Positions 21,733 to 35,172 of a stretch of 64,000 nt of DNA are shown here, one piece after another. Source of the DNA: Blastocatellia bacterium. Lineage in GTDB: Bacteria; Acidobacteriota; Blastocatellia; UBA7656. The stretch is taken from contig CAVXWP010000001.1 in assembly GCA_963765495.1 (NCBI GenBank), forward strand, positions 512,001 to 576,000. The letters are read 5' to 3'. Each line of letters begins with the position of its first letter. The first letter of the stretch is position 1. The notes beneath the pieces were generated by a model. That model was given only the letters and a program-made list of their open reading frames with translations. It ran no database searches and was not told the origin of the DNA. The translations under genes were made by a program, and so were the position numbers.

Positions 21733-23484
21733 TTACTTGAGCCACGCGTCGTCTATAACCGTGTCTACGGTGACGGGTATGCTGCTGATGAATTCGCGCG
21801 CTGCCGCAGTCATTTCGCGTTCCAGGATGGTTACGCATTCTTCGGCTTCGGCTTCGGCTACCTCGACCACTATTTCATCGTGTATGCAGTTGACTATCTG
21901 GGCGTCGAGCGGTTTGATTGCCTCGTAAAGAAGCGCGAGCGCGCGTTTGACAATATCGGCGCTGCTGCCCTGAATGGGCGCGTTCTTGCCGAGTCGCTGT
22001 GTAGCCGCCACCTGTGAGCGTTCGTTCTGATCGAATTCGAAATATATCAAACGGCCTGAACGCGTGCGGCTCTTGCGATCGCGAACGGCTCGCCCGGCTG
22101 CCTCGCGCAGCCACGCGGCAACCCCGCTATAGGCCGCGAAGTACTTTCGTATCAATTGCTCGGCCTGCTCCGCCGAACAGTCAATACGCGCCGCCAGCCC
22201 TTGCGCGCCCAGCCCGTACATTATTCCGTAATTAAGTTGTTTGGCCGCCGCGCGCTGGTCTTTCGATACACTCTCAAGCGGAATCGCAAACATCTGGCTG
22301 GCAGTAACGCAATGCAAATCTTCGCCCGACATAAGTGCTTTCACAAGAGCCGTATCCTGAGACCAGTCGGCCAGTATTCGCAACTCTATTTGAGAGTAAT
22401 CGGCAATCGCAAGCTTGCGGCCCGAAGGGGCGTGAAAGCACCCGCGGTATTCGGGAGTGTTTGGCACCTGTTGAAGGTTGGGATTCGAGCAACTCATCCT
22501 GCCGCCGGTCGCTCCAATCTGGCGGAAGTCCGCGTGGATGCGCCCCGTTTCCGGGTGAATGTGTTCGAGCATCGGAAGCCCGTAGCTGCTCAAGGATTTC
22601 TGCACGCTTCGGTATTCGAGCAGTTTTGCAATCGCCGGATGCTCTTTGGCGAGCGGCTGAAGCTGCCAGTTTCGCGTGCCTTCGACCTTGATGCCTATGC
22701 GCGAGAGCGCTTCTACTATTTGCGCGGGGCTGTCGAGGTTGATGTCCGGGTCGCCGAACAGAGTGAGTTGCGGCACCCCGGCCGCAAGCTCGCTCTTAAG
22801 ATCGGATGAAAGGATTTCGTGCGCTCGCTCGACATCGCCCACGAGCCGCCGCCAGCAATCTTTATCAATCGCCATCCCGGCAAGCTCCATAGCCGATAGC
22901 GGCAACACGCAGTCGAATTCAAGTTTAGCCGCCTCCATCAGGTCGTGCTCTTCAAGCTCTTCGATGAGCGACTCTCGCAGAGGCAACATCAAGGCAGCGT
23001 CCTTGGCCGCATACTCGTATTGTATTTCGGCAAGCTCACCTGACCAGTCGCTCGCCTGCATAGCCTTATCCACAGGCTGATTTAAAAAGCGCTCGGACAC
23101 CGCAGCAAGGGCGTGTCCGCCTTCGCTGCGGCCTCCGCCGATCAACTGGCTTGCAAGCATCGTGTCGAATATCCCTCGCACTTCAATATCGAAGTGATGC
23201 ATCAGCATCTTCAAATCGAATTTCGCATTGTGCAGAATCTTTGTTATGCGGGCCGCTGTCATCAGCTCGCGTAGTCCCGCGTGATCGAATGCTGAAAGCC
23301 GAAACAGGTCTATGACAAAGTTTCGCTCAGGCGTAGATATTTGCGCCAGCCGCACACGACTCGTGAGCGGGTCAAGCCCGGTTGTTTCCGTATCCAACCC
23401 TATGGCTGAATAATTTGCTATGTGTATAACGGCTTCTTCCAGAGCCGTCTCAGTGGTGACCAACGTGAAAGGTGTTTTACTCAC
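21733..23484 (-). CDS. polA: Family A DNA polymerase with 3'-5' exonuclease, lacking the 5' nuclease domain
   Basis: ExoI GLDTETTG, ExoII HNAKFD, ExoIII YAAKD; motif A ADYSQIELR, motif B R..AK.LNYGIMYG, motif C IHDE. Confidence 0.9.
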   Translation of the reverse strand: MSKTPFTLVTTETALEEAVIHIANYSAIGLDTETTGLDPLTSRVRLAQISTPERNFVIDLFRLSAFDHAGLRELMTAARITKILHNAKFDLKMLMHHFDIEVRGIFDTMLASQLIGGGRSEGGHALAAVSERFLNQPVDKAMQASDWSGELAEIQYEYAAKDAALMLPLRESLIEELEEHDLMEAAKLEFDCVLPLSAMELAGMAIDKDCWRRLVGDVERAHEILSSDLKSELAAGVPQLTLFGDPDINLDSPAQIVEALSRIGIKVEGTRNWQLQPLAKEHPAIAKLLEYRSVQKSLSSYGLPMLEHIHPETGRIHADFRQIGATGGRMSCSNPNLQQVPNTPEYRGCFHAPSGRKLAIADYSQIELRILADWSQDTALVKALMSGEDLHCVTASQMFAIPLESVSKDQRAAAKQLNYGIMYGLGAQGLAARIDCSAEQAEQLIRKYFAAYSGVAAWLREAAGRAVRDRKSRTRSGRLIYFEFDQNERSQVAATQRLGKNAPIQGSSADIVKRALALLYEAIKPLDAQIVNCIHDEIVVEVAEAEAEECVTILEREMTAAAREFISSIPVTVDTVIDDAWLK

Positions 23485-23627: not shown

Positions 23628-23717
23628 GATGCGTGATCCGTGATTCGTGACCTTTAGGGAACCCGTTTGTAAATGACAAGTTAAAGCCTGCCAAATCACG
23701 GATCACGCATCACGAAT
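23628..23717. repeat. Heptamer tandem-inverted-repeat element, copy B
   Basis: gatgcgtgatccgtgattcgtga ... atcacggatcacgcatcacgaat; supplies the last codons and stop of the MscS gene. Confidence 0.85.
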
Positions 23718-25034
23718 CAATTCAGCAGGTTTAACGCGTTTCTGAAAGCCTTTTCTCGCCCTCTCGATTGTATCGCTTCGCAACTCGCGCTCATACTGCA
23801 CGTCAAACACATAGGCCGTCACAACGAGCTTTGTGACAGGCTCGTTTCTGTATTCCTCGTCCACCTGCACTTCAATTGGCTTGTTGATGTAAACATAAGG
23901 CGAGATGGCTACCGCCTCGTAGGCTATTCTCTTGCCTTCTTCGATATCGATATCAGCAGGCAAGAGCAATTCCGTAGTGACCTGGCTTTCAATCGCGCCC
24001 GAATTTGAATTGGAGACAGGCGAGCGCGCCACATCGGAGTTGGGAATCGCAACTACGGACCCGTCCGGCGACAACAGGTGAAAAGCCCTCAGACCTATTC
24101 GCAGCACTTCGCCCTGATGGTTGCCGATCTTTATCCGGTCGCCGATTTGAAAGGGTCTTTCAAGCAGAATTACCATCCCGCTTATGATGTCTCTGAGCAG
24201 TTGTTGTGAGCTAAAGATCAAAGCCACCGCTGCCAGAACAAGCAGGACAACGATGGCCGCCGCCGAATTGGCAAAGATGCCGACGACCGCCGTTATTGCC
24301 AGAAACCACCATCCAAAACTTACAAACGGGATGGCTCTGCGCAGCCATAACGTCTGATCTTTTCTGCGCCCGGCTATTCGATTCAAGACAAGCACGAGCG
24401 CCTTGTGCACAAGGTAAAAGAATCCAAGAGTGAGCAGAGCTAAGATAATTGCCCTGAACGAGAATGACCCTGTAAGCTTTTCAATCTCTTCGACGATCTT
24501 TTTTTGAATCCCTTCGACTTCTCCGTCTTTCGGCTCGGGCCGGGCAACCGTCGGTTGCGTTTGCGGCTCGGGCTCAAGTGCAGGCGGCTCGGCCGGTTGT
24601 GTTTGAGTTTGAGGCTGCGCGGCAGGTGGCTCTGGTTGTTGAGTCTCGGCAGGACTTTCATTAGCAGGACGTTCATCAGCAGGATTTTCACTCCGAGGCT
24701 GACTGCTCTCTTCTTGCGGCCTTTCGGGCGCGGGGCTTATTGTCTGCTGCGGCACAGGCGGGGGAGGCTCTGCCGGAGCCTGCTTTTGAACTGTGGGCGC
24801 GGGTTTTTGGGGCGCGGGTTTTTGGGGCGCGGGTTTTTGGGGCGCGCTTTGTTCGGGCTGTTTCGGTGTTTGTTTTTCGACCTGCTCGGGTAGGGGAGGT
24901 TCAGGTCCTGGTTTTTCCTGTTTTTGCTGATGGCCAATGCGGGCCGCCATGCTTTTCCCAAAGCAGGTCGACCCTGCCAGGCAAATCATACCCAGAAGTA
25001 AAAGGGATAAAATGTGTCTGAAAACTCTGGTCAT
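23703..25034 (-). CDS. MscS-family mechanosensitive channel with signal peptide and Pro/Gln/Glu-rich N-terminal extension
   Basis: RDIISG...ERPFQIGDRIKIG...G.V.RIGLR...IPNS motif; TGATG overlap with the upstream gene. Confidence 0.88.
   Translation of the reverse strand: MTRVFRHILSLLLLGMICLAGSTCFGKSMAARIGHQQKQEKPGPEPPLPEQVEKQTPKQPEQSAPQKPAPQKPAPQKPAPTVQKQAPAEPPPPVPQQTISPAPERPQEESSQPRSENPADERPANESPAETQQPEPPAAQPQTQTQPAEPPALEPEPQTQPTVARPEPKDGEVEGIQKKIVEEIEKLTGSFSFRAIILALLTLGFFYLVHKALVLVLNRIAGRRKDQTLWLRRAIPFVSFGWWFLAITAVVGIFANSAAAIVVLLVLAAVALIFSSQQLLRDIISGMVILLERPFQIGDRIKIGNHQGEVLRIGLRAFHLLSPDGSVVAIPNSDVARSPVSNSNSGAIESQVTTELLLPADIDIEEGKRIAYEAVAISPYVYINKPIEVQVDEEYRNEPVTKLVVTAYVFDVQYERELRSDTIERARKGFQKRVKPAELIRDA
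24795..24846. repeat. 15-bp coding tandem repeat (3.5 copies, PQKPA)
   Basis: (gggcgcgggtttttg)x3 + gggcgcg inside the MscS N-terminus. Confidence 0.9.
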
Positions 25035-28000
25035 CAATGTAACATGTTCCGGGTTCGCAGTTCTTTTGCTAGAGGAATATAAATAACACGGTTTACGGCA
25101 AACTGCTCCTGGCCGTCATCGCGGATTTCTTTGACCAGCAAATTTATGTTAGTCAGGTATGTCAGGGTCGAAAGGCTCGATGTTCGGTCGGTCCCAAAGA
25201 CATCGGCATGCTCGCCCGCCGTCAGGCTCCCGTGCTGGATTATCATGCTCAGGGTCAGTAGTTTTTTAACGTGCATGTCTGAGAGGAAATCGAATCTCAA
25301 TCGTTCGAGCGGTTTGATTATAAGCTCGTTCCCCTGGACGTCTGCGATGGACTTCAGCCAGTAAAAAATGGCCGCCAGAGAGTTTCCCTCGGTCGCCCTG
25401 CTCAGGTCTTCAAAGTATTCTCTTCTTATCATCTCCTGCTGTTTGTCGGCTGAAGCCTTGCGATACTTTTTCTTTTGCTCGATAACCTCGTCGGGCAGAA
25501 ATCTCAAATCGAATCCGCTGACCTTGTGCCGCGAAAGAATGACCTCTTCGAGTTGCGCGGGCGTCAGGTTTTCCGTGTTGACCACGAAAGTGAAATGATC
25601 CGAGATGTGAAGTACTTCATCCAGATAGAGCCAGCCGAATTTCCTCATCGAGATCACCCACAGCACCTGATGGCTCGTGGCGGCGACGAGCAGCAACAGT
25701 TTTCTCATCCCTTCGAATCCGCCAAGCGCGCGGAGGTAAAGTTGATGCGCGTCTTCGAGCACGACGACGGTTCGCTGCGCCATCTCGCCGAGCCGCTCGT
25801 GTATTTCATCAAAACTCTCAGCGCCTGTTATGCCCAGAATCGCCGCAAGCTCCGCAACCATTTCCCGCTCGCTCACGACCGTGGATTTGAACTCTTTTCT
25901 GTAAACCGGATAATCGCCCAGCACATGTTTGATCAGCGAATTTATAAAACTGGTCTTTCCGCTTCCAAGCTCGCCGATTACCGCCACGGCGCAATGCATG
26001 CCCTGTTGCCACCTCTTGCGGGCAGTCTCGACCATCTGCAATTCCTGCTCGCGAGCCACGAGAAAATCGCCCGCCTCGAGCGGGGCTATGTCAAACAAAC
26101 GCTGATAGATGAACGGCAGGTTTTTGATTACGCCTTTATCCAGCCTCGCCTGATCGTAGATGGCAAGAATTTCCGAGGGCGTGAATTGTTGAAGCCCCAG
26201 ACTGCTTTTAAGGTCTTTGACTACCTCCTGGCTGATCGGTCTGTATCTGGCGACAATCGCCCCGGAGTTTCTTCCCATCCATTCAAATAATTGCGTTACG
26301 AGGCGCGAAGCTCGGGCCAGAAATTGCCTCTGCTTCAGCCGCACCTGAATGTCGAATGAGGTGCGTTTCAAGACCAGAGTCTCGAAATCTCTCATCCGCT
26401 CGTCCACCTGCGCGATTATCTTTTCATATACCTGATTCTTTAACTGGATTATTCTTTCCAGAGTCGATTCCATCCTGTTTATCGCCCGCTCGATGCCGCC
26501 AAGCGACAACTCTTTCAAACGCGCGGTATCTTCCTCGCCATACTCACCCGGCGTAAGATTGTCGAGTACTTCCAGACAGGTCTTGAGGTTGAAGTTGACT
26601 ATCCTGTAACCGTCGGTCACCGCGCGGATCGTTTCATCCACCTGCTCGAACATGATGCGGTTGACATTGGCCAGATCGCGCGCGATTTCCGTCTCAAGGT
26701 AAGAGCGTGTGATCTCTTGCATAGGCACGATCTTCAAATCCACTCGGGGCGGAGCGAGGCCGTCGGTTCTGTTTAATGCAAGTTCTTTTTCATCGAGCAC
26801 AAGACAATTGACCGGCGCTTGGTCGGCAAGCGTTGAAAATCTCTTGAGCATCACTTCGATCAGCGCATTCAATTCCCGGCTTTCGCGCACGCGAGTCAGA
26901 TTCTCAAGCGTGCCGTTTTGCACGAAGGCAGTGAGGGCTTCGTGTTGACTTGCGATCTCGGTTTTCAAAGTGGCGATGGAGTGATTCGAGTCGAAGACCC
27001 GGACGAGTTGCTGGCGGCTCCCTTCGCATTGAGCTTTCGTAGCGCGAATCCCGGTCACAAGCTTTTCGTCAATGCTTTCAAGCACGTCATAGACTATCTC
27101 ATCAACCGTCCGACTGACGTTATCCATCAGGATCACGACTTCGATGTGTTTTGCATAAGCGCCTGCCGAGCCTGTTTGATAGTTCTGCCAGATGTCGAAT
27201 GATTGGGCTATGAGCTTGCGCGCCTTCTCTCTTGCTTCGTACACCTTCGAGAAGCGAAACCTGCGCGAAGGTAATTCGAAGGTTCCGGCTGTTTCCAGGT
27301 CTTTCAAAAAGGCTGAATAAGCGACCGAGAACGCCAGTCTCATCTGTCGCCTGATGTCGGCGCTATAATTATCGAGGTCATCCGATACTGCGCGGAAATC
27401 CGCGTCCAGATTGCGGCAGACCTCTTCAAGGCTCCGAGCCGCCTCAGATTCGCTTACCGCTCCCGTTTCGAGCGCGTTTATTTGCGATTCGTATTTTTCG
27501 TCAATCTTTTTGTAAAGCGCCTGACTCCGTTCGAGGGCAAACAACGGCTCCGCGCCCAGGAGGTTTGCCGTTTTCGGCAATTCGGGCAGCAGAAGTCCCG
27601 CGAAATAATATCTGGCCAGTCGCCTGAATTGAATGGTTCGCCTCAAATCAGACCGCGCACCGAACACCCTGCGGATCATCTTGTATCCTCGTTTTAGCCG
27701 CTTGCGCGATCTGACATAAAACGAATCGCCCTCGGCGCTCAGAAGCCTTTCCGGCTCCTGAACGACTGAAATAGTTCCTTCGCTCGCTTCCGAAAGAGCG
27801 TCGAGCGCGGCAAGCAGTTCAGCGAATCCTGTCTTCGGGTTTTCGGCGCTGACTTCGGTCGTTTGCCGATAAATCTCTTTCGACAGCACTCGGGAAAAGA
27901 TGATCCGGCTCTCTCGAAAAACATCTATCATCCTTCTCGGTTCGTTGACGGACAGGGCTTCTTTCCTGAGCGCTGAGACGGCCTTTAAGCATTCCTCTCG

Positions 28001-29569
28001 CGTAGCGGATATAAAGCTCTGCCAGTTTGCGGTCTGCGGATCGAGGGTCGTTTGCTCGAAATTGCGTTGCAAACCCAGCAGCCCTTCGCGCAGCCCGAGT
28101 GCCGCCCTGTTCAATTCATCCGATGCAAAGCGAGGCAGGTGGAAACGCGCTTCATCAGACGGCGAAACACTTATAATCGGCTCATCGCCTGTGATATCGC
28201 TTGTGAAATTGACTGTGATATCGCTTACGGCAGGGATTATGACAGCCTCATCGCCCGTGGCGGCGGATTCGTCGATCCTGTCGCGCTGTTCTCTGGTTTC
28301 GCCTGCGCGCGCAAGAGCCAGTTTGAAGGCGACGGGGCCGAGCATGAGGTTAAAGCCTATGGTTCCGAGTACGATGGTCTTTATCTCTGACCCGATGCCC
28401 GGCAGATTGCGTTCGACTATGATGGCGAGTCCAAGCACAACGCCCGCCTGCGAGATAAAACTCAGCCACGCGTTCTGCTCTATTTTTGGCGGCTCGCCCG
28501 CAATCTTTACGGCCAGTCGCGTGCCCGCGAAAATCGCGATTACGCGCACGACGACAAGCGCCAGAGCGATGAGCGCCACCTGCCTGAGCGCGTTCAGGTC
28601 CAACCCCGCACCGGCTATCGAAAAGAAGACTACATAGACCGGCAGAGAGACCTCCTCTACCGGGTGGATAAACTCATCACCAAAACGCGAGAGGTTCTGG
28701 ACCACGAATCCGGCGGCGATGAACATCAAAAGCGCTTCGAGATGAAATCGCGTGGCGGCAGTCGTAGCCACAAAGATCAGGGCTACGATAAAGAGCCACA
28801 TCTCTGCGTGTACGAATCGGATGTAGGCGATGATGATGCCGCCAAGCAAGACGCCCGCAAGGATTGAAAGCAGCAATTCTTCGCCTACGTTTAAGAGTAT
28901 ATGCGGGTCAAATGTCGCGCCTTCGGTCGAAAACAGACTCGCAAGCGACATGGCAATCGCAAGCAGTATGACCATCACCACATCTTTAGCCACCGCCGCG
29001 CCCAGCGTGATGTCGCTCAACCTGCCCTTTGATTCGGTCTCGTTTATGACGGCGATGGTCGCCGCCGGGGAAGTGCCTACGGCAAGCACGCCGAAAATCA
29101 TCCCCACAGAGAGAGTAAGCGGAACGCTTGCGCCTCCGAGAAAAGGTATAAATGAACGTATGGCAAAGACGGTCCCCGAAACGGCGATCAGGATCAGCAA
29201 TCCTTTTATCAGCACGATGAGCGAGAGGCTTTTCGCCACCGCTTTTAGCCCGCTCATCTTCATCTCTGCCCCCGCCGTGAGCGCGATAAGCCCTATTGCA
29301 AGGCTGTTGATGAGCGTCAGGTCTTCGACTACTTTTACCGAAAAAAGGTCTATGACGTAAGGGCCGAACATCACGCCCGTGATGATATAGCCTGTGATCT
29401 TTGGCAGACTGATAGAGTTTGTGATCTCTCCGAAGGTATAGGCGGCGAGCAGAACAAATCCAAGCGTAGCGAGCGATTTCGGATGCAGAGGCGTATCGAC
29501 CTCGACCTGCAGGAATTGCAGGGCGTACATCAACAGAAAGAGCAATCCTATTATGAGGACTCGTCGCAT
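25034..29569 (-). CDS. Cation/proton antiporter fused to a long helical region, a P-loop NTPase and a winged-helix-like C-terminus (1511 aa)
   Basis: N-terminal ~425 aa CPA (LPKITGYI..G...GP, TSPAAT, KD, FFSIAGA.L, SQAGV.LGLA); Walker A GELGSGKT; Walker B VVVLEDAH. Confidence 0.85.
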   Translation of the reverse strand: MRRVLIIGLLFLLMYALQFLQVEVDTPLHPKSLATLGFVLLAAYTFGEITNSISLPKITGYIITGVMFGPYVIDLFSVKVVEDLTLINSLAIGLIALTAGAEMKMSGLKAVAKSLSLIVLIKGLLILIAVSGTVFAIRSFIPFLGGASVPLTLSVGMIFGVLAVGTSPAATIAVINETESKGRLSDITLGAAVAKDVVMVILLAIAMSLASLFSTEGATFDPHILLNVGEELLLSILAGVLLGGIIIAYIRFVHAEMWLFIVALIFVATTAATRFHLEALLMFIAAGFVVQNLSRFGDEFIHPVEEVSLPVYVVFFSIAGAGLDLNALRQVALIALALVVVRVIAIFAGTRLAVKIAGEPPKIEQNAWLSFISQAGVVLGLAIIVERNLPGIGSEIKTIVLGTIGFNLMLGPVAFKLALARAGETREQRDRIDESAATGDEAVIIPAVSDITVNFTSDITGDEPIISVSPSDEARFHLPRFASDELNRAALGLREGLLGLQRNFEQTTLDPQTANWQSFISATREECLKAVSALRKEALSVNEPRRMIDVFRESRIIFSRVLSKEIYRQTTEVSAENPKTGFAELLAALDALSEASEGTISVVQEPERLLSAEGDSFYVRSRKRLKRGYKMIRRVFGARSDLRRTIQFRRLARYYFAGLLLPELPKTANLLGAEPLFALERSQALYKKIDEKYESQINALETGAVSESEAARSLEEVCRNLDADFRAVSDDLDNYSADIRRQMRLAFSVAYSAFLKDLETAGTFELPSRRFRFSKVYEAREKARKLIAQSFDIWQNYQTGSAGAYAKHIEVVILMDNVSRTVDEIVYDVLESIDEKLVTGIRATKAQCEGSRQQLVRVFDSNHSIATLKTEIASQHEALTAFVQNGTLENLTRVRESRELNALIEVMLKRFSTLADQAPVNCLVLDEKELALNRTDGLAPPRVDLKIVPMQEITRSYLETEIARDLANVNRIMFEQVDETIRAVTDGYRIVNFNLKTCLEVLDNLTPGEYGEEDTARLKELSLGGIERAINRMESTLERIIQLKNQVYEKIIAQVDERMRDFETLVLKRTSFDIQVRLKQRQFLARASRLVTQLFEWMGRNSGAIVARYRPISQEVVKDLKSSLGLQQFTPSEILAIYDQARLDKGVIKNLPFIYQRLFDIAPLEAGDFLVAREQELQMVETARKRWQQGMHCAVAVIGELGSGKTSFINSLIKHVLGDYPVYRKEFKSTVVSEREMVAELAAILGITGAESFDEIHERLGEMAQRTVVVLEDAHQLYLRALGGFEGMRKLLLLVAATSHQVLWVISMRKFGWLYLDEVLHISDHFTFVVNTENLTPAQLEEVILSRHKVSGFDLRFLPDEVIEQKKKYRKASADKQQEMIRREYFEDLSRATEGNSLAAIFYWLKSIADVQGNELIIKPLERLRFDFLSDMHVKKLLTLSMIIQHGSLTAGEHADVFGTDRTSSLSTLTYLTNINLLVKEIRDDGQEQFAVNRVIYIPLAKELRTRNMLH

Positions 29570-29588
29570 ACTTTTTTCTTAGAGGCGA

Positions 29589-30836
29589 TCACGCCGCCTT
29601 GATCTCTTCGGCGTCAACGAGCAGAGATTTCGTCAGCCGGGGGCTTAAAAATTCGTTTATGATGACCGAAACGAGCACCGCGCTTACCACCAGATTTGTG
29701 AACTGATTCTGATATACCTGCTGATAGTTGACCGTCATGGCGACGGCTACGCCGCCCTGCGATAAAAGCCCCAGACCTGTGTGACGTGCAAGCCTGTCGG
29801 GATGTTCCGATGTGGCATAGGCTATCGAGCCGCCGATATATTTGCCCAGATAACGCAGCAGGAAATATCCGGCGATAAGCCCCGCGTTTACGTACCATCG
29901 TCTGCCGTAAGGCACCTGCCAGGCCGCGCCTGCAAATACCAGCAACACGACGTAGAAAGGCTTTTCGATTGAGTGAAGAACCTCCAATAGCTGGTTTCTG
30001 ATCCTGGATGTGTTGGCAAGCATAATGCCGAGCACAAAATTGATGAACAGGGGCGACAGGTTCAGGTAATAGGCCGCGCCGCTTGAAAAGACCACGATGC
30101 CGATCAATGCGAGCAGCAGCTTTTGCCTGCTCTGTTCGCGGCCCAGAAAAAGATAAAAGAGCGAGCCCAGAAGGATGCCGAAAGTTATATTGACTGCCAC
30201 CCATTCGGTTCTGGTCAAAGGCCTTATGCCGCTGGTCTCTCCTATGTGAAAAATGCAGAAGACGAACCCGAACAGTATAATACCCAGTAACTCGTCAAAC
30301 CTGACGGCAAACTGCAACAGGTCCGAGATGTTGCCGCTTGCGTTGTAATGATTCTTCACGACTCTAATAGCAGTCGGGGCCGATACGGCTCCCGTAGCTC
30401 CCATAACCACCGCGCTTGAAAAGACCGCAAAGATCCTTTCCTGTCCGCTCAGACTGCCTGAGAGTAAGTACCACAGGACCAGAGCAAAGGCTCCGCCAAG
30501 CAAGAGGAATGTGACGAGCGATTCGGTTAGGGCTACGCGGTAGAATTCCATGTTGATGCGGCCCATCTCTCGAAAGCGAACCTGCAAGCCCACGAGAAGT
30601 CCTATCGAACCTATAGCCAGGCTCATGATCGGGCCTAGCTGACCGACGACTTCGCGCGTCATCACGCCCGTGACATACGGCCCGACCAGCACGCCCAGGA
30701 TTATGTATTCGATACCTGATGTGAAAAAGAGACGGCTTTGGAGTTTACCGATCAAGAAATGGGCGCTCAGATACCCGACGGCCAGGATAGTTATGAATTG
30801 AATTATTGTAATAATAGCCATGATCTTTGATACCAT
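29589..30836 (-). CDS. Cation/proton antiporter (CPA-like) membrane subunit
   Basis: YIILGVLVGP, SAPTA, FDE, LLVFAGA and LLSQGGVA motifs; about 12 TM helices. Confidence 0.8.
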   Translation of the reverse strand: MVSKIMAIITIIQFITILAVGYLSAHFLIGKLQSRLFFTSGIEYIILGVLVGPYVTGVMTREVVGQLGPIMSLAIGSIGLLVGLQVRFREMGRINMEFYRVALTESLVTFLLLGGAFALVLWYLLSGSLSGQERIFAVFSSAVVMGATGAVSAPTAIRVVKNHYNASGNISDLLQFAVRFDELLGIILFGFVFCIFHIGETSGIRPLTRTEWVAVNITFGILLGSLFYLFLGREQSRQKLLLALIGIVVFSSGAAYYLNLSPLFINFVLGIMLANTSRIRNQLLEVLHSIEKPFYVVLLVFAGAAWQVPYGRRWYVNAGLIAGYFLLRYLGKYIGGSIAYATSEHPDRLARHTGLGLLSQGGVAVAMTVNYQQVYQNQFTNLVVSAVLVSVIINEFLSPRLTKSLLVDAEEIKAA

Positions 30837-31114: not shown

Positions 31115-32662
31115 ATGGATCGGGGTAAATTTGAAAGCATAAGAGAGTTGCTTGAATCAAGAACGGCCTGCTCGCCGGATAAAGAGTTTCTCTTTTCCGA
31201 AAGCGACGGGCGCGTATTCACCTATTCCCAGTTTGATTGCGAGGTCAATCGCGCTGCGAATCTGCTCGCCTTCGCGGGCGTCACGAAAGGCGAACGCGTT
31301 AGCCTTCTTCTCACAAATTGCGTCGAATACCTGATCTTTTATTTCGCGTGCTTCAAGATAGGCGCGTGGGCCGGACCCGTAAACGCATTGCTTACGCCGC
31401 GCGAGATTGAATACATCATAAACAATTGCGAGGCAATGGTCGCCGTAACTCAATCAGACCTCTACGCCAAACTTGCCGAAGCCAGTACGCCATCGCTCAA
31501 GCGAATCATAATTACAGGCGATGGACAATCAAAGGCAGATGATTCACCGTTCATCATTGCGGATTCGACGTTCACAGACGATAGCGCGCCGCCTGTCTTC
31601 CAAATCTCAACCGATGACGAAGCTTTGATAATCTATACCTCTGGGACTACGGGCAAGCCCAAAGGCGTATTGCTCACGCACGGCAATATGCTTACAAACG
31701 CGGAAGAGATCGCCCGATGGCTGGCTTTGACAGAAGCCGACCGGTCGCTGATGATAATGCCGTTATTCCACGTGAACGCGCTTATGACGACAGCGATGGC
31801 CGCGCTGTGGGCGAGCGCAAGCGTAGTGCTCGCCCACAGGTTCAGCGCCTCTCGCCACTGGGAGATGATTTCTCGCTACGGCGTGACCTATTTCGGCTCG
31901 GTCGCAACGATGCTCTCCTTGCTCAATCACAATTACACGGACGGCATACCGCAGGGGCTGGACACCTCCGGTCTCAGATTCGCGCTCTGCGGGTCCGCGC
32001 CCGTTCCGGTCGAGATACTTAGACAGTTCGAATCGCTTTTTGCCTGTCCGGTAGTCGAGGGCTACGGGCTGTCGGAATCAACCTGCCGCTCGACCTTCAA
32101 CCCGCCGGACGAGCGACGGCGACCCGGCTCGGTCGGCCTCCCCATAGGCAACGAGATCAGAGTGTTCGACGACAACGATCAGGAGCTTCCCGTCGGACAG
32201 GTCGGAGAGATTGTCCTGCGCGGGGCGAACTTGATGAAAGGCTATTACCTGAACGACGAGGCCACGAGCGAGGCGTTTCGCTCGGGCTGGTTTCACACGG
32301 GCGACCTCGGTTATGCGGATGAGGACGGCTTTTTCTACATCGTAGACCGCAAGAGCGATATGATAATTCGCGGGGGCGAAAACATCTATCCGCGAGAGAT
32401 TGACGAAGCGCTTTATCAGCATCCGAAGATCAAAGACGCGGCGACCATCGGCATAAGCGATCCCGTTTATGGCGAAGAGGTGAAATCCTTTATCGTGTTA
32501 AAGGCAGGCGAGCAGGCATCCGAACAAGAGATCATAGAGTTTTGCCGCAAACGGCTGGCCGACTTTAAATGCCCAAAGACCGTAGAATTTCTCGAAGACA
32601 TTCCAAAGGGCCCCACGGGCAAACTGCTCAAGCGAGAACTGGCTGACAGGAAAAAGGGCTAG
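31115..32662 (+). CDS. AMP-forming acyl-CoA synthetase (long-chain fatty acid--CoA ligase family)
   Basis: IYTSGTTGKPKG, EGYGLSE, FHTGDLG and PKGPTGK motifs. Confidence 0.93.
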   Translation: MDRGKFESIRELLESRTACSPDKEFLFSESDGRVFTYSQFDCEVNRAANLLAFAGVTKGERVSLLLTNCVEYLIFYFACFKIGAWAGPVNALLTPREIEYIINNCEAMVAVTQSDLYAKLAEASTPSLKRIIITGDGQSKADDSPFIIADSTFTDDSAPPVFQISTDDEALIIYTSGTTGKPKGVLLTHGNMLTNAEEIARWLALTEADRSLMIMPLFHVNALMTTAMAALWASASVVLAHRFSASRHWEMISRYGVTYFGSVATMLSLLNHNYTDGIPQGLDTSGLRFALCGSAPVPVEILRQFESLFACPVVEGYGLSESTCRSTFNPPDERRRPGSVGLPIGNEIRVFDDNDQELPVGQVGEIVLRGANLMKGYYLNDEATSEAFRSGWFHTGDLGYADEDGFFYIVDRKSDMIIRGGENIYPREIDEALYQHPKIKDAATIGISDPVYGEEVKSFIVLKAGEQASEQEIIEFCRKRLADFKCPKTVEFLEDIPKGPTGKLLKRELADRKKG

Positions 32663-33554: not shown

Positions 33555-35172
33555 CCAGCAATTCTCGGTAAGGCTGTAAATGAAGAAAACAAGCCAAGAG
33601 GTGGATTGAGTTTTTGCGCTTTGCTATCCTTTGGCCTATGCGACCTCTTAAGAGCCTCACTCTGGATGCTATTATTTCCCGCTTCTCTCATGCCTTCTCT
33701 GCCTCTCCTGATTACAGAGATGCCGGTAAAGTCAACTACCCCTTGCGCGACTGTCTGATGAGCGGCTTCGCGATGATGTTTTTCCAACATAAGAGCCTGC
33801 TTGAGTTTCAGCGCAGGATGAAACAAAGACGCGGGCGGTCTAATCTTGAGACTATCTTCTGTGTTAAAGATATTCCTTCTGACTCTCAGATGAGAGAGGT
33901 TTTAGACTCCGCTCCGACGCAAGATTTGCGTCGGCTTTTGCCGAGGCTGTTTGAGGATGTCAGACGAGCGGGTTGGGCAACCGATTTCAAGACCTTCATC
34001 CCTACTGGCCAAAACCAGGGCGACTACTACACGCTTATGCTTGATGGGACCGAGTACTTTCATTCTACAAACATAGAGTGCCCGTCGTGTTTGACAAAGA
34101 CTGACAAGAGTGGGCAGATACATTACTCACACTGTGTAGTGGCCGCGACTTTGGTTCGGGCCTCCTCGCATAGAGTTCTTCCACTCGATGTAGAAGAGGT
34201 TCAAAACACTGACGGACAACAAAAACAAGACTGCGAGTTGAATGCCGGTAAGCGACTCATAGAGCGGTTGCGTCGTGAGCACCCGCAAATGGAGATGATC
34301 GTTGGAGGCGATGATCTTTATTCACACGAGCCTTTTGTAGAACTACTTCAAAGCAAGCGAATCCATTACGTGTTGGTAGCAAAACCTGATTCTCACACAG
34401 AACTCTTTGAAAGGGTGGAAGAGTTGGCTCGTTTGCCTCAGTGTGAGCAAGGGGAGTGGGAAGAAGGGCCAGCCTGCAAGCGAAGGTACTTTCAATACCG
34501 TGTCGTGCGAAGTGTGCCCCTGTCATCATCTCGCAAAGTAAGGGTGATGTTCGTAGAAGTGTGGGAGAGAGACAAACAAGGAAGATTACTCTACCACAAC
34601 TCTTGGATAACAGATTTGGAAGTAGACATTGAGAACCTGACGGTGATAGTAGCGATAGGACGGTCGAGATGGAAGATCGAAAATGAGCACTTCAACGTGG
34701 CAAAGAATCACGGTTATGAGATGGAGCATAACTTTGGGCATGGGAAGAAGAATCTATCTATGGTCTTTTACTTGTTGAACCTGCTGGCATTTGTAGTGCA
34801 CAAGATAATAGAGAAGGGAGACCATCTGTATCAGAAATGTCGAGCGATGGAGACGCTGAAAGAATTGTGGAATGGGTTGAGGACCATCATGAAGACATTC
34901 CTGGTGGAGAGTTGGAAAGAAATGCTTATGATGTATATAGGAGAAGAAGAAGGCGATCCGTAAGCAGGAAAGGCTCAGGCCGGGGCCAAAGAGAAGCGGT
35001 CAGGAAAGCAAAAAGAGAAGATAGAAATGAGAAGAAGGGGAGGCAAACAAAGACAGAACGAGAAGAAGGGAAAGCAGGATGGTGGAAAGGAGAAGTTGTA
35101 TCCAAGTGGTCAATATCTCCACCTGCAACTCTGAGAGGCATTTTCATTGCCACTCTCACCAAGAATTCCTGG
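33555..35172 (+). mobile_element. Insertion sequence (~1.6 kb) with DDE transposase and imperfect terminal inverted repeats
   Basis: Left end CCAGCAATTCTCGGTAAG vs right end (revcomp) CCAGGAATTCTTGGTGAG, 15/18 identical; flanks ctcta/ctcaa; AT-richer than neighbouring genes. Confidence 0.85.
33638..34963 (+). CDS. DDE transposase (IS4-like/ISNCY-type)
   Basis: LDGT (D1), GDDLY (D2), GRSRWKIENE (RWxIE signature), CPSC motif. Confidence 0.88.
   Translation: MRPLKSLTLDAIISRFSHAFSASPDYRDAGKVNYPLRDCLMSGFAMMFFQHKSLLEFQRRMKQRRGRSNLETIFCVKDIPSDSQMREVLDSAPTQDLRRLLPRLFEDVRRAGWATDFKTFIPTGQNQGDYYTLMLDGTEYFHSTNIECPSCLTKTDKSGQIHYSHCVVAATLVRASSHRVLPLDVEEVQNTDGQQKQDCELNAGKRLIERLRREHPQMEMIVGGDDLYSHEPFVELLQSKRIHYVLVAKPDSHTELFERVEELARLPQCEQGEWEEGPACKRRYFQYRVVRSVPLSSSRKVRVMFVEVWERDKQGRLLYHNSWITDLEVDIENLTVIVAIGRSRWKIENEHFNVAKNHGYEMEHNFGHGKKNLSMVFYLLNLLAFVVHKIIEKGDHLYQKCRAMETLKELWNGLRTIMKTFLVESWKEMLMMYIGEEEGDP

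Follow-up and report, generated by a model that had tools for sequence, protein, structure and literature searches.

A conserved gene pair of an AAA+ ATPase and an MscS-type channel, extended by CPA-like membrane domains in a Blastocatellia bacterium

Bacterial mechanosensitive channels are textbook cases of direct gating: membrane tension acts on them without the help of any auxiliary subunit. To our knowledge, the regulation described for the MscS family, which includes Escherichia coli MscS (YggB), MscK and the bCNG forms with their cyclic-nucleotide domain, involves tension, K+, crowding or fused ligand domains rather than a separate ATPase, and the portions of the literature reached by our search held no case of MscS regulation by such an enzyme. 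Nucleotide-binding cytoplasmic regulators that act on an ion pathway are known from KTN-gated Kef or Trk systems. Here we describe a locus in which an ATPase gene directly precedes an MscS gene, located in a 64,000-nucleotide stretch of DNA (hereafter the window) from a Blastocatellia bacterium of the Acidobacteriota (GenBank assembly GCA_963765495.1, contig CAVXWP010000001.1, positions 512,001 to 576,000). Three co-oriented open reading frames (ORFs) on its minus strand encode P0001, a CPA-like membrane protein of 415 residues; P0002, a fusion protein of 1511 residues that ends in the ATPase; and P0003, an MscS-family channel of 444 residues. An earlier note, made from the letters alone, had read this trio as an antiporter coupled through an NTPase scaffold to a mechanosensitive channel and knew of no characterised example; our literature searches, within the parts of the sources open to them, are in agreement, holding no description of an ATPase partner of MscS or of an AAA+-fused CPA. 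We can state with high confidence that the conserved unit is the pair of ATPase and MscS rather than the trio, and that the lineage of the window has added CPA-type domains to it.

The pair emerged from a survey of related loci in a species-genome collection, of the kind that the earlier note had proposed. It returned 149 relatives, from which 80 loci were kept, 79 of them with room for a downstream check, and adjacency was scored with profiles built from sequences of the present analysis. An MscS-homologous region lies directly downstream of the ATPase gene, on the same strand, at 76 of these 79 loci, a tight linkage. There is none at L042 and L097, the case of L078 is ambiguous, and L098 stops at a contig edge; a second MscS follows in tandem at 9 loci. 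Clustering of 949 neighbouring ORFs recovered only the NTPase (79 loci) and the MscS (77 loci) as conserved families, the next family being present at 9 loci at most. The 80 loci belong to Acidobacteriota (including the isolates Tunturiibacter psychrotolerans and T. gelidiferens), Gemmatimonadota, UBP9 and KSB1, together with a few contigs labelled Burkholderiales or Bacteroidota.

Co-occurrence points the same way. Among 201 genomes evenly drawn from the phylum, the NTPase profile (E ≤ 1e-20) found 6 carriers and the partner-MscS profile (E ≤ 1e-50) found 7. The two sets coincide: in the seventh genome (G209), a divergent NTPase (E 1.3e-20, a 908-residue frame) stands directly upstream of the MscS. 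The two genes never stand apart within this sample, a result given without a statistic because related genomes are not independent. The genome of locus L042 (G032), where the NTPase has no MscS downstream, possesses a single partner-type MscS on another contig. The window's own genome holds a second, unfused module (G000 contig 9, locus L017, 6420-10220, minus strand), in which a 941-residue ATPase is immediately followed by a 298-residue partner-type MscS; just upstream of that module, on the same strand, is a gene for an HxlR-type regulator.

The family reaches far beyond these loci. With the C-terminal 512 residues of P0002 as query, 31 proteins were retrieved, 15 of which are 1482-1509 residues long, carry a precomputed Na_H_Exchanger domain (PF00999) and come from Acidobacteriota/Blastocatellia and KSB1 sources; the rest, of about 1050 and about 930 residues, are without it. 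A profile scan of a representative library of 1.84 billion proteins yielded 4412 clusters at E ≤ 1e-3 (1932 at E ≤ 1e-30), with a dominant length of 920-940 residues. Where the sources give these proteins a name, it is no more than 'ATP-binding protein', 'hypothetical protein' or 'AAA ATPase domain', and one is listed as 'two-component sensor histidine kinase'. Of the 150 representatives listed, nearly all have the NTPase stretch at the C-terminus, and the few exceptions end within it.

Several unusual members were noticed on the way. At L103 (G127:C1, 6544-11818, minus strand) a divergent ATPase in a frame of 1464-1583 residues (ATPase profile A4, E 1.5e-37) has a partner-type MscS directly downstream (partner-MscS profile A6, E 8.5e-70); the 1464-residue ORF and its neighbours have no Pfam match at 1e-3, so that membership comes from the A4 and A6 profiles only and the N-terminal 1100 or so residues are unexplained. 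P0034 (864 residues, E 2e-13) has several hydrophobic segments resembling transmembrane (TM) helices in place of the helical arm described below and may be a membrane-embedded variant of the ATPase. L014 (3545-4492) and L016 (3762-4660) each have a pair of small ORFs, similar in size between the two loci (109/105 and 173/172 residues) and lacking Pfam matches, upstream of the ATPase.

The assignment of P0003 to the mechanosensitive channels, made in the earlier note, is borne out by its match to the MscS beta-domain (PF00924; E 1.2e-19, 70.6 bits, cut-off 20.2). Alignments with NCBIfam MscS models span residues 196-388, taking in the pore helix, the beta-domain and part of the C-terminal domain, at scores below the equivalog cut-offs. 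Like the small MscS proteins, P0003 has a core of about 255 residues (190-444) made of TM helices, the beta-domain and a C-terminal alpha-beta domain. It differs from the described members of the family in belonging to a distinct subtype that is found only with the AAA+ protein. P0003 and the partners from L014, L016, L017 and L021 have no listed match to the models for the C-terminal alpha-beta domain (PF21082) and for TM2/3 (PF21088), whereas the tandem canonical MscS paralogues match both as well; all scanned partners match PF00924 alone, and the region concerned is conserved within alignment A6. In the window's genome, the partner-MscS profile has 9 MscS-family matches, of which two are strong (E 8e-138 and 1e-108, the latter P0003) and are the two encoded beside NTPase genes; the other seven paralogues score E 3e-23 or weaker. 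By sequence, then, the MscS proteins that adjoin the NTPase form a subtype of their own. Ahead of its channel core, P0003 also carries a hydrophobic leader and some 170 residues of Pro/Gln-rich extension, and a similarly long N-terminal extension is seen in A6 only in partners from the fused clade (L023, L024, L026 and L028).

Modelling of P0002 residues 431-1511 with AlphaFold (28-row alignment; pLDDT 83.1, pTM 0.53) gave a disordered linker (431-473) and then some 670 residues folded into very long helices, interspersed with small beta elements; another flexible stretch at about 1108-1132 leads to a compact alpha/beta domain. Foldseek placed this C-terminal part nearest the Orc1/Cdc6 initiators (2qby_A, E 1.1e-7; 2v1u; 1fnn), ORC subunits and the archaeal ATPases 2qen and 2fna, the Orc1/Cdc6 and 2qen/2fna matches spanning E 1e-7 to 2e-5 with target-length TM-scores of 0.40-0.50 and 13-15% identity; weaker matches were to NB-ARC (8bv0, E 1.3e-5) and RuvB. 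On the strength of these matches we take it to comprise an AAA+ core, a lid and a winged helix. A profile built from 40 sequences likewise found the Walker A region of ORC4 (E 1.4e-5) and, at profile positions 277-334, the MarR-type winged helix of 1s3j (E 7e-4). P0002 itself scores below the cut-off for AAA_16 (29.6 against 32.6 bits) and for AAA_22, and its relatives reach 35-42 bits with AAA_16. The P-loop and the winged-helix-like end recognised in the earlier note are thus both present, the former as GELGSGKT (1199-1206) with VVVLEDAH (1268-1275). The nucleotide site is intact throughout the family: Walker A (G..GSGKTS) is found in 40/40 aligned relatives, the Walker B glutamate E1272 in 39/40, with E or D next to it in 37/40, T1298 in 39/40 and R1347-H1348 in 40/40.

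P0002 shares with the Orc1/Cdc6 and 2qen/2fna proteins the AAA+ core, lid and winged helix with intact Walker A and Walker B. It differs from Orc1/Cdc6 in being bacterial, in carrying an N-terminal helical arm of 570-670 residues (and here a membrane domain as well), in its linkage to a channel and in a winged helix that is predicted by modelling to bind protein. The earlier note had likened the architecture to STAND/ExeA proteins, and the combination of NTPase and winged helix does recall STAND NTPases such as Avs, bNACHT and NB-ARC, as do weak AAA_16 and nSTAND1 matches, the NB-ARC matches in Foldseek and the pairing of an NTPase with a membrane effector. STAND proteins, though, have sensor repeats C-terminal to the nucleotide-binding oligomerisation domain; P0002 ends about 65 residues past the winged-helix motif without TPR, WD40 or LRR repeats, which puts it closer to Orc1/Cdc6-type AAA+ proteins, and it further departs from STAND systems in having no PADLOC match at E ≤ 0.001 and a chromosomal, non-defence context.

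This kinship raises the question of whether the protein might act on DNA, as a transcriptional regulator of the AAA+/winged-helix type that governs the mscS gene downstream, along with other stress genes, and makes no contact with the channel. The nearest solved folds are indeed those of DNA-binding initiators, and the C-terminal domain resembles a MarR-type winged helix (1s3j). On the other hand, the protein is fused to a membrane domain in one clade, the contact with MscS predicted below runs through its winged helix and C-terminal tail, and a distinct MscS subtype co-occurs strictly with the ATPase even where the two are unlinked, which a simple relation of regulator to target does not need. 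We regard transcriptional control as very unlikely, and the context, namely the membrane-domain fusion and the MscS linkage, argues against origin binding or replication initiation by P0002.

The earlier note had also recognised some 700 residues of helical sequence. The models place long helices there, at about residues 484-1150, with individual helices of up to 87 residues and mean pLDDT values of 83-87; modelled alone (residues 480-1150), the arm reached pLDDT 86.6 and pTM 0.74. Foldseek found no match for it at E ≤ 1e-3. VIA-align returned only generic bundles (designed bundles at Z 15; BAR, flagellin and dynamin-stalk folds at Z of about 10), at the level expected by chance for helical models, and we assigned no specific fold.

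A physical contact between the two members of the pair is predicted. P0002 residues 1101-1511 (40-row alignment) and P0003 residues 190-444 (38-row alignment) were modelled together at 1:1 and gave an ipSAE of 0.75 (0.72, 0.75 and 0.75 in separate runs), against 0.00 for the best of three controls; the ipSAE mark applied is passed by 116 of 157 complexes of solved structure and by 2 of 215 mismatched pairs, a calibration that is only approximate here since our own alignments were used. At least 93% of contacts were common to the runs, with a partner pLDDT of at least 75. According to the model, the AAA+ lid, winged helix and C-terminal tail contact two helices of the C-terminal alpha-beta domain of MscS: the interface comprises, on the ATPase side, R1280-F1285 (eight residues past Walker B), 1315-1319, winged-helix residues 1434-1459 and the C-terminal 1507-1511, and, on the channel side, 371-385 and 411-433. 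Near-invariant residues lie within it, namely R1280 (39/40) of the ATPase and E374 (35/38), P380 (37/38), D412 (36/38) and also R426 of the channel. We know of no solved MscS-AAA+ complex, which makes it unlikely that the score reflects a memorised structure. In the E. coli MscS heptamer the corresponding helices face outward, and several ATPase copies could for this reason surround one cage. Of the coupling that the earlier note had imagined between an NTPase scaffold and a mechanosensitive channel, it is the contact between NTPase and MscS that the complex model favours.

The same adjacency and docking would be expected of an assembly, quality-control or localisation factor, that is, an AAA+ protein that assembles, disassembles or positions the MscS subtype (and the CPA module) rather than gating it. 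Many AAA+ proteins remodel complexes, and the long helical arm could serve as a scaffold; Orc1/Cdc6-type AAA+ proteins, by contrast, act as nucleotide switches rather than unfoldases. We judge such a role unlikely.

The explanation that we prefer, and to which we give about an even chance, is that the ATPase binds the cytoplasmic cage of the channel and makes solute release nucleotide-dependent, within turgor and ion homeostasis. The locus would then consist of an MscS-type channel and a cytoplasmic AAA+ ATPase that is dedicated to it and structurally of the Orc1/Cdc6 kind, whose modules bind the outside of the heptameric cage and whose nucleotide state sets when the valve can open or inactivate, and solute release would answer not to membrane tension alone but also to the energy or ionic state of the cell. 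Where the fusion is present, the arm may tie an exchanger-like or ion-sensing CPA module, probably a heterodimer of the P0002 domain with P0001, to the same channel, and the handling of cations and protons would be matched to bulk solute release through osmotic transitions. A bolder version has up to seven ATPase modules sitting as a collar on the MscS heptamer, ATP binding or hydrolysis opening or locking the channel independently of tension, and the arm hard-wiring a CPA-derived ion sensor or exchanger, such that K+ and solute release are metered as soil wets and dries; in this full form we hold it to be possible yet doubtful.

Several observations weigh against nucleotide-dependent solute release as the function. 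Conservation at the predicted interface is the same as elsewhere (mean 0.49 vs 0.48 in A4; 0.62 vs 0.62 in A6), which in itself neither helps nor hurts the complex model, and the model pairs the ATPase with one MscS subunit instead of a heptamer. No relative of the helical arm could be recognised, for which reason any role given to it is a guess, and the CPA-like domains lack canonical ion-site residues and may not transport. The osmotic theme among neighbouring genes is recurrent and thin, with 11 of 140 flanking ORFs at most in any one family. Finally, the module is sparse, being present in about 3% of the sampled genomes of the phylum, and stands in variable contexts, both of which also fit an accessory or conflict system.

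Genomic context nonetheless fits the ion and osmotic homeostasis that the earlier note had considered, through the families of neighbouring genes and the Trk genes. Counting loci by ORF clusters, with one representative per cluster named by Pfam, the recurrent neighbours are tandem Usp proteins (9 loci), a CitMHS + TrkA_C transporter (8), an ABC ATPase (8), a canonical Na+/H+ exchanger (6), a TPR protein (6), an OtsA-like GT20 enzyme (5) and a trehalose-pathway-like alpha-amylase/CBM48/DUF3459 protein (5). For the flanking tally, 140 ORFs adjoining the pair were taken from 147, omitting four of more than 1000 residues together with L025:4666-6954, L057:7566-10490 and L097:3225-6215; Pfam names MscS (11) as the commonest family among them, followed by Na_H_Exchanger (4), CitMHS (3), TrkA_C (3) and TrkH (2).

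Context bears equally on an anti-phage or abortive-infection function, which the earlier note had offered as an alternative in the form of an NTPase-gated depolarising effector: a STAND-like NTPase sensor would open MscS, and the CPA in fused forms, and collapse ion gradients. A sparse and patchy distribution (6-7 of 201 genomes), a self-contained two-gene unit in variable neighbourhoods, general AAA_16 matches, a match of nSTAND1 (PF20703) to one relative (E 6.4e-7) with precomputed nSTAND1 for several homologues, and a design of NTPase plus membrane effector that recalls known defence systems would all suit it. PADLOC (PADLOC-DB 2.0.0, from 2023), however, gave no match at E ≤ 0.001 for the three window proteins or the paralogue, and a single row, mad8 on P0002 (E 0.0044), at a limit of 0.01. 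On the 140 flanking ORFs at E ≤ 1e-10 its matches are scattered and generic, spread over 24 models with one member each, of which 19 are E1-E2 variants and the rest RmuC, subtilase and GlgB-like. By tblastn, no copy was found in 72,556 plasmids or 50,697 phage records. The window's flanks are a DNA polymerase A and an AMP-binding enzyme, recurrent neighbours elsewhere are ionic or osmotic, no sensor repeats follow the winged helix, and the groups of the ATPase tree largely track taxonomy. We consider defence improbable, and homeostasis of turgor and ions remains our preferred setting.

As for the CPA-like components, the earlier note had distinguished a stand-alone subunit and a second, divergent domain in the fusion protein, and both can be recognised. 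P0001 matches Na_H_Exchanger (PF00999) at E 2.3e-13 (50.2 bits, cut-off 26.2) and has nothing in the PDB sequence search. P0002 itself has no PF00999 match at E ≤ 0.1 in Pfam; its N-terminus matches the CPA2 model TIGR00932 at E 2e-8 and MjNhaP1 (4czb) at E 3e-4, the only PDB match. An orthologue piece at L022, 78% identical to P0002, matches PF00999 at E 3e-22, and the domain is precomputed in 15 of 30 non-self homologues. P0001 can be assigned to the Na_H_Exchanger fold from its own sequence, and the N-terminus of P0002, which is weakly CPA-like on its own, can be assigned to it with the help of its orthologues.

P0002 resembles KefC, KefB and other CPA2 exchangers, whose gating depends on a KTN/RCK domain at their C-terminus (with KefF/KefG), in joining a CPA-fold membrane domain to a large cytoplasmic nucleotide-binding extension, and one source name of its homologues is 'Kef-type K+ transport system membrane component KefB'. 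It differs from them in having no TrkA_N/KTN domain by Pfam, its extension consisting of the arm of about 670 residues and the AAA+/winged-helix part; in scoring 34.1 bits with TIGR00932 against a cut-off of 238.3; and in showing the site motifs TSP and KD instead of the canonical acidic pair. The canonical CPA ion site is made of T-D in TM4, N-D or D-D in TM5 and a basic residue in TM10/11. In the alignment to 4czb, T166-S167-P168 of P0002 stands opposite T131-D132-P133 of MjNhaP1, and K195-D196 opposite N160-D161; TSP and KD are found in 17/17 fused sequences that could be aligned with MAFFT (P0028 failed to align). In P0001-type proteins AVSAP replaces the TDP motif and FD or LN replaces ND, P0001 itself having RFD, and the arginine of the GLRG motif is glutamine in P0001-type and fused sequences alike, whereas two canonical exchangers encoded near related loci retain TDP, ND and R. 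These are, on the alignments, conserved departures rather than decay. As neither protein has the ion-site residues of canonical CPA1/CPA2 antiporters, antiport by P0001 and by the CPA domain of P0002 is doubtful, and a sensor role is possible.

A FastTree phylogeny of 81 NTPase domains places the protein of the window among the seven rows of one clade (SH-like support 95). Five of these are CPA-fused, namely the window, L024, L025, L027 and L028; L026 is the same gene ended by a contig edge, and L023 is a 1051-residue form with no CPA nearby. The remaining 73 rows, of about 930 residues, lack a CPA domain. Fusion forms of about 1480-1510 residues occur in Acidobacteriota and KSB1. Since most relatives (about 920-940 residues) are without CPA, the domain is a lineage-specific addition and not part of the core; the fusion is real, old enough to span phyla, and an addition to the pair. 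The fused gene immediately follows a P0001-like gene in the window and at L024 and L025; at L027 and L028 the two are separated by trkA and trkH, inside the operon; and G001, the nearest relative, has a MacB-like gene in the upstream position. The trio is kept at 5 of 6 loci where this could be checked. Of the two weaknesses that the earlier note had foreseen, a chance fusion is countered by the conservation of the fused form, and an unconserved trio is partly the case, the trio being confined to the fused clade while most relatives have no CPA.

That the three genes are mere neighbours, with the fusion an artefact of assembly or annotation, is in our estimate hardly credible. The fused gene does appear as two ORFs in L024 (4696-9224) and L025 (4666-9215), of 763 and 736/744 residues, split at the same place with a gap of 24-27 nucleotides, and in G001 the gene is broken across two contigs. 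Against this, 15 independent homologues of 1482-1509 residues carry PF00999, intact ORFs of 1490 and 1497 residues exist in L027 (on a 5.1-Mb chromosome) and in L028, the contig that carries the ORF of the window is 1.3 Mb long, and MscS adjoins the ATPase at 76 of 79 loci. The contigs of L024 and L025 are closely related (tip branch lengths 0.04 and 0.08), and the division of the gene there could be genuine, stem from a frameshift common to both, or be programmed.

Two further observations concern the tree and another possible fusion. Contigs labelled Heliomicrobium, Patescibacteria group or Actinomycetota (L025, L099, L077 and L078) nest within Acidobacteriota clades and are probably mis-binned or mislabelled contigs of metagenome-assembled genomes rather than gene transfers. 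In a protein atlas, the unfused ATPase has a score of 0.91 with a cluster of 1159-residue proteins, 11% of whose members have PF03522 (SLC12), which gives a weak hint of further fusions of the ATPase module, to cation-chloride cotransporters.

A widespread and intact AAA+ family, genetically locked to one MscS subtype and joined in repeated instances to ion transporters by fusion or linkage, would mean that turgor regulation has a further layer under nucleotide control. Thousands of proteins now named 'ATP-binding' or 'hypothetical' in soil phyla such as Acidobacteriota and Gemmatimonadota would thereby acquire a function, and the locus points to an unstudied control of ion and turgor balance. 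The idea is directly testable because cultured carriers exist, namely T. psychrotolerans, T. gelidiferens and Paludibaculum fermentans.

The features of the locus are collected in Table 1. Gene order and translational coupling of the three genes were established by computation, and the co-orientation, the 19-nucleotide gap and the TGATG overlap of the earlier note are all read directly from the sequence, as is its multi-domain protein of 1511 residues, in the order CPA-like domain, helical arm, AAA+ core and winged helix.

Table 1. Features of the ATPase-MscS locus, in coordinates of the window.
Feature	Position	Strand	Basis
P0001, stand-alone CPA-like membrane protein, 415 residues	29589..30836	-	ORF; PF00999
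19-nucleotide intergenic gap, P0001 stop to P0002 ATG, tcgcctctaagaaaaaagt	29570..29588	-	direct sequence reading
P0002, fusion protein, 1511 residues	25034..29569	-	ORF
P0002 CPA-like membrane domain, residues ~1-425	28295..29569	-	TIGR00932; 4czb alignment
P0002 linker, low confidence, probably flexible, residues ~426-483	28121..28294	-	model pLDDT <50 at 431-473
P0002 helical arm, residues ~484-1150	26120..28120	-	structure models
P0002 Orc1/Cdc6-like AAA+ core, lid and winged helix, residues 1151-1511	25037..26119	-	Foldseek, profile matches
P0002 Walker A, GELGSGKT, residues 1199-1206	25952..25975	-	motif
P0002 Walker B, VVVLED, residues 1268-1273	25751..25768	-	motif
Stop/start overlap of P0002 and the MscS gene, TGATG	25034..25037	-	direct sequence reading
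P0003, MscS-family channel, 444 residues	23703..25037	-	ORF; PF00924
P0003 N-terminal hydrophobic leader and Pro/Gln-rich low-complexity extension, residues 1 to ~189	24471..25037	-	translation
P0003 MscS core, 'partner-type' subfamily, residues 190-444	23706..24470	-	PF00924, NCBIfam, alignment A6

Two starts are ambiguous. The MscS gene begins with TTG at 25037 or ATG at 25034, and that of P0002 is uncertain by 13 codons, the public gene call (P0004, 1498 residues) beginning 13 codons downstream of the ATG. The G+C content is 0.51-0.56 over the region, and the composition is unremarkable. A promoter-like site lies upstream of P0001 (30914-30885); eight such sites compare with a shuffled mean of 4.7 (standard deviation 2.2), which is not an enrichment. 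The operon is flanked by genes for a family-A DNA polymerase (21736-23484, minus strand) and, divergently, an AMP-binding enzyme (31115-32659, plus strand). The sole mobile-element-like feature seen near the operon, about 3 kb away, is a 449-residue ORF at 33614-34960 (plus strand), with a weak DDE_Tnp_1-associated match (E 4e-6, below the cut-off).

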